Below, piece after piece: positions 52,512-59,462 of a stretch of 64,000 bases of DNA. How positions within the stretch are numbered: position 1 is the first letter of the stretch; every line of letters begins with the position of its first letter. Position numbers and translations under genes: made by a program. The notes beneath the pieces were generated by a model. It had not been told where the DNA came from. It saw only the letters and a program-made list of their open reading frames with translations, and searched no databases. Source of the stretch: Blastocatellia bacterium (GTDB lineage Bacteria > Acidobacteriota > Blastocatellia > UBA7656); NCBI GenBank assembly GCA_963765495.1, contig CAVXWP010000012.1, positions 128,001 to 192,000 on the forward strand. Reading direction: 5' to 3'.

Positions 52512-52722
52512 GACGGTTTTAATGCCTCCGATAGATTGCCTGGCCTGGCAGGCAAGAAAAATTTGATCCGGGAAAAAGGGAATTTTAGATGAATCCTTGC
52601 ACCCTTGACAACCCTGCCGGAAAAAAGTTTTTGACACTCTCCCGGCAAATCTGCTAAATTCAGTCACTTGTAGACCTGTCCGTCTCCGCGGCATGGGCAA
52701 GTTCCGGCAGGGAAGGAAATAA

Positions 52723-54621
52723 ATGAGGAATATCACACTGGAAGAGGTCGCTCAGACCTATGGTGTGGAAAACTGGGGGGCAGGATACTTTGAGGTAAAC
52801 CGAAAAGGACATCTTGCGGTACGCCCGGCCAAGGACGATCCCCGATCCGTTGATCTCAAAGAAGTCATAGACGATCTGGTAGAACAGCGCAAGCTTTCGC
52901 TACCCATCCTGATTCGGTTCCCGCAGATACTGGTCAATCAGCTAAAGAAGCTCAATAAATCCTTCAAGGAGTCGTCGCGCGAATTCGACTACGCCGGCAA
53001 CCACTACGCCGTGTTTCCAATGAAGGTCAATCCCCGGCGCGAGGTTGTAGAAGAATTCTTGCGCGAAGGCAGAAGATACAACTTCGGCGTGGAATGCGGG
53101 TCAAAGGCCGAGCTTTACGCGGCGCTTTCGCTCAATCAGGCACCGGAATCGCTGCTTATCTGCAACGGGTTCAAAGATCAGTCCTTTGTGGACCTCGCTT
53201 TGATAGGGACTCGGATAGGCAAGCGAGTTATGATCGTCGTAGAGAAGCTCAACGAATTGAAGATGATCGTTCGCCGCGTGCAAGAGACGGGCGTGCGCCC
53301 CTGGATAGGGCTCAGGGCAAAGCTCTATTCGCGCGGATCTGGCAAATGGGCTTCATCGGGCGGCGAATCGGCCAAGTTCGGTCTCACTACCTCGGAAATA
53401 CTCGATTGCATACGCGTGCTCCGCGAGTACGAGATGGAAGACTCGCTCAAGCTGCTCCATTTTCACATAGGCTCGCAGATAACCGACATCAAGCGTGTAA
53501 AGAACGCGATGAAGGAATCGGCCCGCGTCTATGCCAAGATACGCCAGATGCACATAAACATAGAATATCTGGACATAGGCGGCGGCATGGGCGTCGATTA
53601 CGACGGATCGAAGACCACCTTTGAATCGAGCGTAAACTATACTACGCAGGAATTTGCAAACGATGTGATCTACACTATAAAATCGGTTTGCGAAGACGAG
53701 GGTGTGCCCGAGCCGCATCTGGTCACCGAAAGCGGGCGTGTGATGTCGGCATATCACGCTGTCTTTGTGACCTCTATCCGCGACGAGATTGAGACCTTTG
53801 CCGACGACCGGCCCGAAGTAACTGTAACCGATGACGACCCGCAGGTGATAATAGAGCTTAAAGACCTCTACGACGATATAAACGCAAAGGTCTATCGCGA
53901 ATACTACCACGATGCGCTCGACCACAAAGACGAGTTGCACACGCAGTTTAATCTGGGGCTGATCAGTCTCGAAGACCGGGCCAAGGGCGAGGTGCTGTTC
54001 TGGGAAGTATGCGCGCGCGCATCAAAATTTGCCCGCGCTGCAAAGATACAGGAAGAAGAGTTTGATGAGTTGAAAAGGATTCTGGCGTCGAAGTATCTTT
54101 GCAATTTTTCGGTCTTTCGCTCGGTGCCCGATCACTGGGCCATTGACCAGCTTTTTCCTATAATGCCCATACACCGGCTCAACGAAACGCCGACCGACTA
54201 TGCCACTTTCGTGGATATAACCTGCGATTCCGATGGCCATATAGACAAGTTCGTAGACCTTAAAGATGTGAAAGAAGTGCTCGAACTTCATCCTTTCACA
54301 GGCGACCCATATTACATAGGCATATTTCTGGTCGGCGCATATCAGGAGGTAATGGGCAGCTATCACAATCTTTTCGGCATGCCAAACGAGGCTCATGTTA
54401 ATATAGACAAGGACGGCCGTTATCACATTACCCGTACTGTTCAGGGCAGTCGCATCGGCGACATGATCGCTTTTGCACGCTACGACCGCAGTCAGGCATG
54501 GGAGAATTTTCGGCGAATGACGAAGGAGCGAGTGGACGGCGGACACCTCACTCAGGATGAAGCCGACGCCCTCGTCAAGCGATACGAAGATGATATCAAC
54601 CGGTATACATATCTAGAATAG
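52723..54621 (+). CDS. speA: biosynthetic arginine decarboxylase
   Basis: WGAGYF, FPMKVN (PLP Lys), GSKAEL, HFHIGSQ, TESGR, DITCDSDG, GAYQE. Confidence 0.96.
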   Translation: MRNITLEEVAQTYGVENWGAGYFEVNRKGHLAVRPAKDDPRSVDLKEVIDDLVEQRKLSLPILIRFPQILVNQLKKLNKSFKESSREFDYAGNHYAVFPMKVNPRREVVEEFLREGRRYNFGVECGSKAELYAALSLNQAPESLLICNGFKDQSFVDLALIGTRIGKRVMIVVEKLNELKMIVRRVQETGVRPWIGLRAKLYSRGSGKWASSGGESAKFGLTTSEILDCIRVLREYEMEDSLKLLHFHIGSQITDIKRVKNAMKESARVYAKIRQMHINIEYLDIGGGMGVDYDGSKTTFESSVNYTTQEFANDVIYTIKSVCEDEGVPEPHLVTESGRVMSAYHAVFVTSIRDEIETFADDRPEVTVTDDDPQVIIELKDLYDDINAKVYREYYHDALDHKDELHTQFNLGLISLEDRAKGEVLFWEVCARASKFARAAKIQEEEFDELKRILASKYLCNFSVFRSVPDHWAIDQLFPIMPIHRLNETPTDYATFVDITCDSDGHIDKFVDLKDVKEVLELHPFTGDPYYIGIFLVGAYQEVMGSYHNLFGMPNEAHVNIDKDGRYHITRTVQGSRIGDMIAFARYDRSQAWENFRRMTKERVDGGHLTQDEADALVKRYEDDINRYTYLE

Positions 54622-54701
54622 GGGCCAGGGGCCGGGGGCCAGGGGCCAGGAAACTCAGTATGTCTGATCCTGACCCCCGCCCCCCCGACCCCCGATCCCC
54701 G
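54620..54701. repeat. heptamer (AGGGGCC) fold-back element
   Basis: aggggcc aggggcc gggggcc aggggcc agg ... cctgacccccgcccccccgacccccgatccccg. Confidence 0.85.
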
Positions 54702-54719
54702 ATTGAGGCCAATAACACA

Positions 54720-55769
54720 ATGATGAGGAAACAAAAAAGCTCGAAATTCCTGACTACCCCCACGCGTCCCGTGCAGATAGACCGTGATCGTTCGGTCGCA
54801 GGACTGCTCACCAAGATGGAAGGCGCGGGCTTTCAAGCCCGCACGCTTGCCGCCGCGCACAACCTCTGGCTGGAGATGCTATCGGACAACGCGACGATTT
54901 TCATGGGGTTGTCGGGGTCACTGGTCGCTTCCGGGATGCGGCGGCTGATCTCTTATCTGATCAAGAACCACTATGTGGACGCTGTCGTCGCTACGGGAGC
55001 GAATCTCTTCCACGATCTGCACGAAACGCTTGGCCGCTATCATTATCAGGCATCCGAAGAAATGGGCGACGACGAGCTTCAGGATGCACAGGTGGGGCGC
55101 TTCTACGATATACTCGCAAGCGAGCACGAATACCGCGAGGCCGACGAGTGGGTAGGCAATTTCGCCAACACAGTCGACCACTCGCGCCCCTATTCAACGC
55201 GGGAATTTTTGCATCTGCTCGGACGCGAGCTTGCCGAAATAGCCACCGAAGACGGCATATTGACATCGGCCTACAAGGCCAAGGTTCCGGTATTTTGCCC
55301 GAGCGTTGCTGATTCGGCCATAGCCGTAGGCATAGCCACATCGCGAATCAATCGCAAAAATCCGTTTCAATTCGACATTATTCAGGATGTGGTAGAGGCT
55401 TCACACGTCATCGCGCGCTCGGTCAACACGGCTACGGTGCTCTTTGGCGGCGGCCCTCCCCGAAGCTTTCTTCATCAAACCGAGATAGCGGCCTCGATCA
55501 TCAAGCAATCGATTCGCGGCCACAAGTACGCGCTGCAAATCGGGCTTGATCTGCCCGAAAGCAGCACAACATCGGATCGGAGTTTTGAGGAAGCGCAGAC
55601 CTGGGGCCGCGTGGCCAAAGATGCCAACATGGTTTCGGTTCTCTGCGACCCGACCATCGCAATGCCGATACTTGTGACGGCACTGTCACAGACGGGGACG
55701 AAAGCGCTCAAGCAGCGCCGACGCCCTCAATTCAACTTTGGCCGTGACCTCTCGGTCAACTTTTCATAA
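54720..55769 (+). CDS. deoxyhypusine synthase-like protein, catalytic Lys replaced by Arg
   Basis: GFQA, ATGANLFHD, PVFCPSVADS, GGG, EAQTWGR (canonical EAxSWGK), DPTIAMP. Confidence 0.88.
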   Translation: MMRKQKSSKFLTTPTRPVQIDRDRSVAGLLTKMEGAGFQARTLAAAHNLWLEMLSDNATIFMGLSGSLVASGMRRLISYLIKNHYVDAVVATGANLFHDLHETLGRYHYQASEEMGDDELQDAQVGRFYDILASEHEYREADEWVGNFANTVDHSRPYSTREFLHLLGRELAEIATEDGILTSAYKAKVPVFCPSVADSAIAVGIATSRINRKNPFQFDIIQDVVEASHVIARSVNTATVLFGGGPPRSFLHQTEIAASIIKQSIRGHKYALQIGLDLPESSTTSDRSFEEAQTWGRVAKDANMVSVLCDPTIAMPILVTALSQTGTKALKQRRRPQFNFGRDLSVNFS

Positions 55770-55821: not shown

Positions 55822-55868
55822 AATAGGTCACAGATGACGCGAATTAGACGCGTCATCTGTGACCTATT
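55822..55868. repeat. perfect 20-bp hairpin, short AATAGG-family element
   Basis: aataggtcacagatgacgcg-N7-cgcgtcatctgtgacctatt. Confidence 0.85.
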
Positions 55869-57489: not shown

Positions 57490-58242
57490 ATGGTATTGAC
57501 GGATGTAACAGACGAGTTGCTGATGATGTTCGATAGCGCCCGAACCGTGGCTTGTTTGACCGGGGCAGGAATATCGGCTGAAAGCGGAGTGCCTACGTTC
57601 AGAGGCGGCGGCGGGTCCGAGATATGGACATGGCGTGGCAGACCCGTGACCGAGCTCTCATCGGCTGAATTAATCGCGACCGACCCACGTCTGGTCTGGG
57701 AGTGGTTTGATTACCGGCGCGGGTTACTTAGCGATGTGACGCCAAATCCGGGTCATTTTGCGCTTGCCCAGTGGGAGCGGCGATTTGATGAATTCACGCT
57801 AATTACTCAAAACATTGATGATCTTCATAGAGAAGCCGGGAGTCTAAATCTGCTTGAGCTTCACGGCAACATCTGGCGCGCGCGCTGCCTGCGCTGTTCA
57901 AGCGTATTCGAGGCGAGGGAGTGTCCGCTTGAGCAGAACCCGCCGCTCTGCCTTGCCTGTGGTGGACCTGCCCGGCCCGATGTGGTGCTGTTTGGCGAAT
58001 TGTTGCCCTCGGGTGTATTTGAGCGCGCGGAGGAAGCCGCCTACAACGCGGACATCTTTTTTGTCATAGGCACATCCGCCGTGGTCTATCCGGCGGCAGG
58101 GCTTCCGATTGCCGCGAAGCAGGCCGGAGCGCGAGTGATCGAAGTCAACCCGGAGCTTACCGATATATCAGTGCTCGCGGATGTGAGTTTACTGGGTAAA
58201 GCCGGCGAGATATTGCCACGATTCATAAAGGAGCGAGGGTGA
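57490..58242 (+). CDS. cobB: NAD-dependent protein deacylase (sirtuin)
   Basis: TGAGISAESGVPTFRG, TQNIDDLH, ELHGN, CxxC..CxxC, RPDVVLFGE, IGTS. Confidence 0.95.
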   Translation: MVLTDVTDELLMMFDSARTVACLTGAGISAESGVPTFRGGGGSEIWTWRGRPVTELSSAELIATDPRLVWEWFDYRRGLLSDVTPNPGHFALAQWERRFDEFTLITQNIDDLHREAGSLNLLELHGNIWRARCLRCSSVFEARECPLEQNPPLCLACGGPARPDVVLFGELLPSGVFERAEEAAYNADIFFVIGTSAVVYPAAGLPIAAKQAGARVIEVNPELTDISVLADVSLLGKAGEILPRFIKERG

Positions 58243-59462
58243 TGCGCGCGCTTTATTTCGACTGCTATGCGGGCATAAGCGGCGATATGATAATCGGCGC
58301 TCTCATTGATCTGGGCGTAAGGCTTGAACTGATTGCGGATCAATTATTATCGCTCGGCCTCGAAGGATACCGGATCAAAGCCGACAAAGTGATGCGCAGC
58401 CAGATTGCCGCAACGAAATTCGGTGTTGAGATTGATGACAGGGCTCAGCCTGCGCGCCATCTCGACGACATCATAAGCATCATCGATGGTTCGCGTCTGA
58501 GCCATACGGTCAAATCTCTTTCAAAGCGAGTCTTCGAGCGATTGGCCGAAGCCGAAGCGCGTGTGCACGGCACTACCTCGGAGCGAGTTCATTTTCACGA
58601 GGTAGGGGCGGTAGATTCGATCATTGATATAGTCGGGGCGATGATTGGATTTGAAGAGTTGGGAATAGAAGTCTATTACTCATCTCGGCTGAGAGTAGGT
58701 CGCGGCTCGATTGAGGCGGCGCACGGGCTTTTACCCGTTCCGGCTCCGGGTACGGCCGAGCTTCTTCGCGGAGTCCCCATTTATGCGGGCGCGCTCGAAG
58801 GCGAGTTTGTCACGCCAACGGGCGCGGCGATTGTGACAACCCTTTGCGAACATTTCATACCAATCCCTCAAATGAAACTGGATCGAACAGGCTACGGCGC
58901 AGGCGCTCGCGACCCGGAAGGGTTTCCGAATACGTTGCGATTGATCCTGGGAGAGACGGAGCAAGAGCAGGCAGTGGCGAGCGCAGAACACGTATTAGTA
59001 ATCGAAACCAACATTGATGATATGAATCCACAGGTCTACGGATTTGTGATGGACCGCGCCTTTCAGATGGGCGCACTCGATGTTTTCATAACACCTGTTC
59101 AGATGAAAAAGAACCGGCCCGGCGCTATGTTGACCGTCATCTGTGAAGCGCAATATCTCGACTCTTTAACAGAGATGCTGCTTGCCGAGACCACGACTCT
59201 TGGTGTGCGGTATTACGAAGCGAAACGCCGCGTGCTTGCTCGTGCAATCGAGACGGTAGAGACTCCCTACGGACGGGTGCGGATTAAAGTGGCGCGGGCG
59301 GGCATTCGCACGTTACACTTTCATCCTGAGTATGAAGATTGCCTGCGACTGGTTGAGCAGGCGCGTGTGCCGCTGCTTGAAATCCAATCGGCCGCCATCG
59401 CCGCCTACCGAGACAGGCTGGACGCGAATCAGGAAAAGAACGAAACGGATGGAAAGCACTAA
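58242..59462 (+). CDS. larC: nickel pincer cofactor biosynthesis protein LarC
   Basis: [55 protein letters not shown]. Confidence 0.93.

Follow-up and report, generated by a model that had tools for sequence, protein, structure and literature searches.

A SpeY paralogue that has lost its imine-forming lysine is conserved behind speA in Blastocatellia

The window analysed here is a stretch of 64,000 nucleotides from the genome of a Blastocatellia bacterium (assembly GCA_963765495.1, contig CAVXWP010000012.1, positions 128,001 to 192,000). In it, a gene of the deoxyhypusine synthase (DHS; Pfam family DS) group lies directly behind speA, the gene for biosynthetic arginine decarboxylase. The product of this gene carries arginine at the position of the lysine that forms the enzyme-imine, and its GGLSG loop is rebuilt; for these two reasons it should no longer be able to run the reaction catalysed by its bacterial homologue, SpeY. 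Across the class, orthologues of the gene have lost catalytic residues, are under strong purifying selection and invariably follow speA, and a canonical SpeY is encoded elsewhere in the genome. On balance, we lean towards the view that the protein descends from the SpeY encoded in an ancestral speA-speY-speB operon but is itself non-catalytic, and that it has been retained in the agmatine module to bind a ligand or a partner. Throughout, "type A" designates the speA-linked DS-family gene and "type B" the second, unlinked DS-family gene of the same genome.

SpeY joins two agmatines to give N1,N9-bis(guanidino)homospermidine (G44G), from which homospermidine is subsequently formed by a ureohydrolase (DUH) or by an iminohydrolase plus an amidase. 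The speY genes cluster with genes for arginine decarboxylase and with speB or agmatine iminohydrolase (AIH) genes, and all SpeY proteins tested made G44G (PMC13625781). In the Thermus thermophilus enzyme CdmS, the conserved Lys299 is taken as the residue that forms the enzyme-imine, while Glu136 and Asp143, located where the tunnel opens, are the residues proposed to secure the second agmatine (PMC10981699). In human DHS, N173 and Y176 contact eIF5A at the tunnel mouth and E137 is a site for nicotinamide adenine dinucleotide (NAD) (PMC10042821).

Results

The catalytic lysine and the GGLSG loop are replaced in the type A protein

The main features of the locus are as follows.

52723-54621, + strand: speA, biosynthetic arginine decarboxylase, 632 aa (P0002); NCBIfam NF003763, 830.6 bits (cut-off 369); TIGR01273, 726 bits
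54720-55769, + strand: type A DS-family gene, 349 aa (P0272), Lys-less SpeY paralogue; Pfam DS, 258 bits
55122-55151, + strand: EHEYREADEW helix, residues 155-164, the most conserved type-A-specific stretch; no variation at E157, E160, A161 or W164 across 120 unique type A sequences
55461-55463, + strand: R268 codon CGA in GGGPPR, corresponding to human K287; lineage-private
55557-55580, + strand: ESSTTSDR, degenerate counterpart of the GGLSG loop, from alignment
55608-55610, + strand: R317 codon CGC in EAQTWGR, at the catalytic-Lys position (human K329, CdmS K299), from HMMER alignment to solved DHS chains

The product of speA matches the Pfam domains Orn_Arg_deC_N, Arg_decarb_HB and Arg_decarbox_C. 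The type A frame is open and intact from 54660 to 55769 (+ strand; P0001), and residue numbers (R317, R307, E157 etc.) are in P0001 numbering, that is, counted from the ATG at 54660. The true start is probably the ATG at 54720, since most homologues are 349 aa long and the ATG at 54660 falls in the loop of an intergenic hairpin. The sequence GAGG is found about 14 nt upstream from the ATG at 54720.

The type A protein matches the Pfam DS profile (PF01916) end to end (258.2 bits, residues 49-341 against profile positions 2-287 of 288), in agreement with the original prediction, made from the window alone, that the frame is intact and full length. It scores below every NCBIfam DS equivalog cut-off: 334.8 against 434 for NF002006 (the best), 247.2 against 304 for TIGR00321, 220.2 against 500 for NF002699 and 198.8 against 450 for NF001980. 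The three motifs on which the prediction was built, EAQTWGR, GGGPPR and ESSTTSDR, are all in frame at the positions assigned to them. In HMMER alignments, R317 lies opposite the Lys of WGK in the solved chains 7cmc and 6w3z and of WNK in 8put. Thus, the protein lacks the imine-forming Lys of competent DHS and SpeY enzymes and has SSTTSD where these have the GGLSG loop.

The arginine codon CGC differs from AAA and AAG at all three positions, from which a read error had been discounted. Comparison with relatives upholds this conclusion and extends it to a private mutation: Arg occupies the site in 47/47 unique sequences at least 74% identical over residues 30-345, and it is encoded by CGC 13 times, CGG five times, CGA twice and AGG once in 21 genomes of the same family. 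R307 is likewise kept in all 47 close sequences, with four Arg codons in use across the 21 genomes. The Arg of GGGPPR is present as predicted but is not a feature of the clade, the position being K in 41, R in five and N in one of the 47 sequences.

The NAD scaffold is retained. Equivalents of the NAD motifs (a Gly-rich GxSG, the Asp of human D238, GGG and the Asp of human D342) are present by alignment (G86, G113, H118/D119, D218, G263-265, D330); in matching them, D238, D313, D342, T104/S105 and G282-284 of human DHS were given the roles that we take them to have from the DHS literature. An AlphaFold2 (AF2) model of the type A protein (mean predicted local distance difference test, pLDDT, 92.2; predicted TM score 0.91) drops below pLDDT 50 only at the degenerate loop, P0272 residues 281-283, and its top Foldseek matches are human DHS chains, 8a0f among them (E 1e-21, TM 0.82). 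A predicted complex of SpeA with type A scored 0.00 (mark 0.32) with the controls not folded, an outcome that speaks neither for nor against binding.

Catalytic residues have been lost repeatedly among type A orthologues

The Lys site was surveyed in 61 type A sequences from the class Blastocatellia, grouped by family (f1 to f10, f1 being the family of the window).

f1: Lys site R in 21/21; loop rebuilt
f5: Lys site R in 10, K in 4, Q in 1; W to F; E323-equivalent to Q
f8: Lys site A in 3, G in 1, V in 1
f2, f3, f10: Lys site K; loop canonical or near-canonical
f4: Lys site K; W to Y/F; one inserted residue
f6: Lys site K; loop gone; GGG to G(A/T)G
f7: Lys site K; loop GSSAED

In this sample, the NAD-contact equivalents (G86, G113, H118, D119, D218, GGG, D330) are invariant or nearly so, and across the 40 genomes that have both paralogues they are invariant in type A and type B alike. 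The catalytic columns behave otherwise. In these 40 genomes, type B is 40/40 for G, G, L, S, G, E, W and K, whereas type A keeps the Lys in only 9/40 (R 27, A 3, Q 1), and none of its loop columns is constant; the equivalent of W327 is F, Y or L in some families. Loop, E, W and K columns rank between the 49th and the 98th percentile of type A variability while being invariant in type B. Type A trees built with the trait columns left out require at least four changes between K and non-K with 61 sequences, and at least five with 120 sequences, leading to R, Q, A, G or V, with an apparent reversal from R to K inside f5.

A lysine in the nearby VAKD sequence (K320) had been named as a residue that might take over the catalytic position. 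This candidate was rejected: the residue is K in 45, R in 14 and P in two of the 61 sequences, and M, P, S, L or R in close homologues. As the position is not conserved, its Lys cannot be a universal replacement nucleophile.

Losses extend to the NAD motifs. The GGG-plus-Asp state is not intact in 17/120 unique type A sequences, mostly through a single Gly change, and at least four changes are needed to account for this on the tree. At seven loci (L191-L195, L209, L210), GGG is reduced to GTS, GSS, GSA, GST or GSN and the NAD Asp is replaced by T, G or S; speA still lies upstream and the EADEW helix is still intact at all seven.

Three representatives of other DS-family clusters (P0237, P0238, P0122) have E or N at the Lys site, or are without the GGG motif. 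Lys-less forms may thus exist outside the speA-linked clade too.

Constraint lies in the N-terminal half and at the tunnel mouth

Most of the checks suggested with the original prediction came out as expected: orthologues with Arg at the site group in a conserved clade on which purifying selection is strong. Median pairwise ratios of nonsynonymous to synonymous divergence (dN/dS) in the family of the window are 0.056 (type A, 21 genomes), 0.061 (speA, 21 genomes) and 0.073 (type B, 17 genomes), at dS values of about 1.4-1.6 that are near saturation. Across 120 unique type A sequences, 69 positions reach at least 99% invariance. Nearly all of them lie in residues 31-243, in motifs such as DRDRS, GMRR, HE.LGR.H, E..EA..W, RE...L.G.EL.EI..EDG.LT and R...K....FD; such positions are nearly absent from residues 244-329, the part that includes the GGG motif, the loop and the Lys site. 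Even among the 47 close sequences the C-terminal half is less conserved than the N-terminal half (mean entropy 0.46 against 0.30).

Twelve residues (E54, R126, E157, E160, A161, E163, W164, E190, I194, D198, R229 and K233) are invariant in 70/70 type A proteins and variable in 48 distant DS-family proteins. Five of these belong to the E155-W164 helix, which aligns with N173/Y176 of human DHS (via an alignment to B. malayi DHS, the human numbering being taken as +2) and lies near E136/D143 of CdmS by residue offset, an estimate and not an alignment. Constraint in type A is shifted from the pocket to the N-terminal half and the helix at the tunnel mouth. In the family of the window, however, the pocket looks rebuilt rather than simply decayed, R317 and R307 having been kept through codon turnover; for this reason the possibility of a changed enzyme is retained below, along with that of a ligand sensor.

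In a mirror-tree comparison over 40 genomes, type A distances track those of SpeA over those of type B (partial r 0.63 versus 0.37). This result carries little weight, given the interdependence of the pairs, the adjacency of the genes and the lack of a significance test.

Type A always follows speA and appears to descend from a SpeY operon

A DS match was found in each of 121 sampled Blastocatellia genomes, and two or more in 107 of them. In a class sample of 60 type A loci from ten families, speA is directly upstream and on the same strand in 60/60 (the speA match being shortened in two), and no type A frame is broken. When 185,579 species genomes were scanned with peptides specific to type A, 455 relatives emerged. 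Among the best 80 of these, which bear titles such as Blastocatellia, Pyrinomonadaceae, Chloracidobacterium or Acidobacteriota, with a few "uncultured Clostridia", 69 have speA within -50 to +400 nt on the same strand; six more have a SpeA match with stop-to-stop frames that overlap type A by 59-265 nt, and the other five have less than 0.8 kb of upstream DNA. In a sample of 151 genomes from the phylum, matches of at least 49% identity were confined to the class Blastocatellia.

The ten nearest relatives outside the class are 32-43% identical to type A and all canonical, with (W/Y/F)GG(L/A)SG..SWGK, GGG and Asp. An arginase-family gene directly follows the DS gene in 7/7 of those tested, an arrangement that is the classical speY-duh module. 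No match to an E. coli-type SpeA was found in about 3 kb upstream of the ten. Within the class, 14/60 loci have an arginase-family gene immediately behind type A and on the same strand (f1 four, f4 three, f7 two, f8 five); it is also found behind type A in 14 of the best 80 of the 455 loci and in L194, L195 and L209, thus persisting beside Lys-less copies and copies without NAD motifs. The occurrence of this gene both behind type A and behind the out-of-class relatives indicates that the ancestral layout was speA-speY-speB.

Some side observations were made in the course of these searches. Loci titled "uncultured Clostridia", "Heliomicrobium" or "Heliobacteriaceae" (L128, L139, L143, L148, L149, L151-L153, L163, L174, L181) are 57-88% identical to Blastocatellia speA-type A loci, and these bin labels look wrong. 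Genome G017 has, beside an intact type A gene, a second, fragmentary copy in two pieces with a TGA stop (L196, L198). Outside the class, a canonical DS match in genome G189 (L204) occupies the C-terminal end of a 1298-aa stop-to-stop frame (from position 464), which could reflect a gene fusion or simply an upstream frame left open in GC-rich DNA.

A canonical paralogue and candidate pathway genes are present elsewhere in the genome

A second DS gene with an intact WGK, for which a search of the genome had been suggested, was found on another contig. This type B protein (380 aa) has GGGSPK and GGLSG..SWGK, is 31% identical to type A and scores 565.6 bits on NF001980, "homospermidine biosynthesis protein", above the cut-off of 450. 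Its catalytic motifs are the ones invariant in 40/40 genomes, and in none of the 40 type-B loci is it next to type A or speA (about ±4 kb). In one family, nine genomes yielded a single DS match each; the eight listed all show the type B pattern, implying that type B works without type A. In this family speA is present in 5/5 genomes tested, and a Nudix/MBL-like frame follows it at the one locus inspected. Conversely, in two 98%-complete genomes a degenerate type A is the sole DS match at E ≤0.001, and type B is missing from one genome whose type A is canonical.

The only arginase-family gene of the genome scores as a rocF arginase. On another contig (L105, 1492-3506, minus strand), an AIH-like gene shares 4 nt with one that resembles N-carbamoylputrescine amidase. 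The scores of the two fall well short of the NCBIfam cut-offs for agmatine enzymes (282 against 483 and 299.7 against 410, respectively); judged from their sequences, they would fit as candidates for a G44G-specific iminohydrolase (the "DIH" route of PMC13625781) and its amidase. The third, weak DS match in the genome is not a DHS but a GSU2086-family protein (429.7 bits; L003, 1345-2313, plus strand). It is weakly similar to both DS and the nickel-pincer ornithine cyclodeaminase and adjoins a 215-aa open reading frame (694-1341).

Signals and neighbours around the locus

Three further elements were recognised near the two genes, the first and the last as pattern matches only.

52631-52660, + strand: promoter-like site upstream from speA; TTGACA, 18 nt, TAAATT; 10/12 consensus matches, with TG before the second hexamer
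54621-54700, + strand: G-run/C-run hairpin in the speA-type A spacer, from RNA folding; its loop contains the ATG at 54660
55822-55868, + strand: terminator-like hairpin 3' of the type A gene; 20-bp stem (10 G-C pairs), 7-nt loop, T-rich tail

The RNA of 54600-54740 folds with -51.4 kcal/mol (z = -1.9 relative to dinucleotide shuffles), and the 98-nt spacer folded alone gives z = -4.4 relative to mononucleotide shuffles. Strong spacer hairpins are frequent in relatives (L004, L005, L007, L010, L011, L022, L028, L032, L043, L044, L046, L052). Their arms are made of short tandem repeats, such as repeated heptamers, with z below -4 relative to shuffles and a different sequence in each genome. In two families the spacer is only 7-9 nt long. 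A conserved, riboswitch-like element was considered and rejected, since the hairpins recur without sequence conservation and two families have spacers this short. The hairpin could represent a mobile palindromic element or else a signal for intercistronic processing or stability. The gene downstream from type A encodes a Ysc84-domain protein; the window also encodes a Sir2 family protein (57490-58242) and a LarC-type nickel insertion protein (58239-59462).

Discussion

The scheme that we favour is the following. Type A would derive from the SpeY of an ancestral speA-speY-speB (ureohydrolase) operon and would have been kept class-wide, co-transcribed with speA, for a function that does not depend on the pocket. 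In the genome studied here it would still bind NAD(H), as the intact NAD scaffold suggests, and at its acidic mouth would bind a partner protein or a ligand that is cationic (agmatine, G44G or homospermidine). By so doing it may regulate or organise the production and use of agmatine, most plausibly through SpeA. Synthesis of the diagmatine compound would fall to the unlinked type B, with the AIH-like/amidase-like pair completing homospermidine.

This scheme draws on likenesses to known systems, each with its limits. Type A shares with SpeY and CdmS the DS fold and Pfam family, the NAD scaffold, the clustering with an arginine decarboxylase gene and, in relatives, with a ureohydrolase gene; it also has acidic residues near the position of CdmS E136/D143, as estimated by residue offset and not by alignment to CdmS. 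It differs from them in having Arg at the place of CdmS K299, in its replaced GGLSG loop and in falling below every NCBIfam equivalog cut-off. The closest experimental parallel is the human DHS mutant K329A (PDB 8a0f, 8a0e), changed at the same position. This mutant is inactive, with spermidine dehydrogenation nearly lost, and still binds NAD, spermidine and eIF5A (PMC10042821): it keeps fold and binding without turnover, the behaviour proposed for type A. K329A, however, is a single engineered change in a protein-modifying enzyme, whereas type A combines a natural Arg with a rebuilt loop in a small-molecule pathway.

Several observations weigh against a non-catalytic role. The NAD-contact equivalents are intact in the family of the window, and the rebuilt pocket is itself selected, R317 and R307 being kept in 47/47 sequences through synonymous codon turnover; a changed enzyme would look alike. 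Besides, invariant Lys residues other than the lost one exist in type A (K52, K206 and K233 in the 120 unique sequences). The two genomes with a degenerate type A as sole DS-family gene, in one of which (L209) an arginase-family gene follows, could mean that type A still contributes chemistry. Also, homospermidine-type, NAD-dependent chemistry without a Lys-imine exists in the unrelated bacterial homospermidine synthase (HSS; PMC4725965).

Most of these observations also commend a different reading, in which type A is a neofunctionalised, Lys-independent NAD enzyme. Its rebuilt pocket (Ser/Thr-rich loop, R307, R317) would take as substrate agmatine or a related SpeA-derived amine, with no covalent enzyme-imine formed, or else a compound with an anionic group. 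The near-invariance of the NAD contacts in the 61-sequence sample fits such an enzyme, as does the biosynthetic operon setting, with a ureohydrolase gene following in some relatives. HSS provides a model for it, but has an unrelated fold and depends on putrescine (PMC4725965); any activity of type A would be hypothetical. We regard this as a serious but rather unlikely alternative. The Lys site is not one fixed residue across orthologues (R, K, Q, A, G, V), the equivalents of E323 and W327 have changed to Q and to F/Y/L, respectively, in other families, the pocket half is the least constrained part of the protein even within the family, and low confidence in the AF2 model is limited to the loop. 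Both the GGG and the Asp motifs are missing from orthologues that occupy the same place in the operon, and therefore the function shared by the clade cannot be NAD catalysis. Moreover, the human K329A change nearly abolishes even the dehydrogenation step (PMC10042821).

The original prediction had put forward two roles, a prozyme-like subunit and a polyamine/NAD sensor coupled to agmatine synthesis. The first was modelled on the trypanosomatids, in which a dead DHS paralogue (DHSp) activates an impaired DHS (DHSc) (PMC3663545). By analogy, type A would hetero-oligomerise with type B and activate or tune it. The coexistence of a Lys-less copy under selection and a Lys-bearing copy in this genome, and the two or more DS matches in 107/121 genomes of the class, recall that precedent, and DS-family active sites are formed at subunit interfaces. 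The resemblance goes little further: in contrast to the trypanosomatid partner (PMC3663545), type B has every canonical motif in 40/40 genomes and by sequence needs no complementation. The two are old paralogues (31% identical), adjacent in none of the 40 type-B loci, and the dead copy is tied to speA and not to the live one; its distances also follow SpeA over type B, a weak comparison confounded by adjacency. With type B found without type A in the nine genomes of one family, and type A without type B in two 98%-complete genomes, an obligate pair is unlikely as the shared function of the clade, although in this one genome it may still operate. The prozyme analogy as stated is thus not supported, and the reading as a whole seems improbable. 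Overall, the initial interpretation is partly supported. The second role, a putative polyamine/NAD sensor coupled to agmatine synthesis, fits the data better. Simple decay, with type A a functionless pseudogene in the making after type B took over, would account for catalytic motifs being lost differently in each family; we find it scarcely credible in the face of frames intact in 60/60 class loci, a dN/dS of 0.056 on a par with that of speA, 69 invariant positions in 120 unique sequences and a post-speA position kept across the whole class.

A more specific form of the non-catalytic reading can be imagined, although on present data it must be called speculative and rather improbable. Type A would be an antizyme-like regulator made from a dead biosynthetic enzyme, one that senses metabolites of the pathway and acts on the arginine decarboxylase translated with it; in the family of the window, where what was the amine tunnel has been rebuilt, R307 and R317, the Ser/Thr-rich loop and the acidic mouth could bind the guanidinium and carboxylate groups of L-arginine. 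If true, such binding would make SpeA activity responsive to both substrate supply and NAD(H) state; type A would then stand as the first pseudoenzyme of the DHS family in bacteria, and would control polyamine synthesis in a new way.

No Lys-less bacterial DS-family protein was found described in the titles and abstract openings of the literature searched, with the proviso that the supplements of PMC13625781 and PMC10981699 might show such sequences; the available portion of PMC13625781 makes no mention of a Lys-less form or of a paralogue pair, nor of "Acidobacter", "paralog" or "inactive".

SpeY has only recently been shown to be a diagmatine synthase, and the mechanism proposed for it rests on the conserved Lys (PMC13625781, PMC10981699). 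Here, a whole class of bacteria carries a second SpeY-like protein that has dropped this Lys several times, and in places the NAD site, yet is as conserved as SpeA and always encoded after speA. If non-catalytic, it would be a clean natural case of a bacterial pseudoenzyme in polyamine metabolism, cases of which have so far come mainly from trypanosomatids. On the practical side, type A genes should not be annotated as "deoxyhypusine synthase", nor be used to infer homospermidine synthesis. The finding raises the question of what a dead SpeY does for arginine decarboxylase, for which the class offers natural controls in the form of Lys-bearing, Lys-less and NAD-motif-less orthologues.

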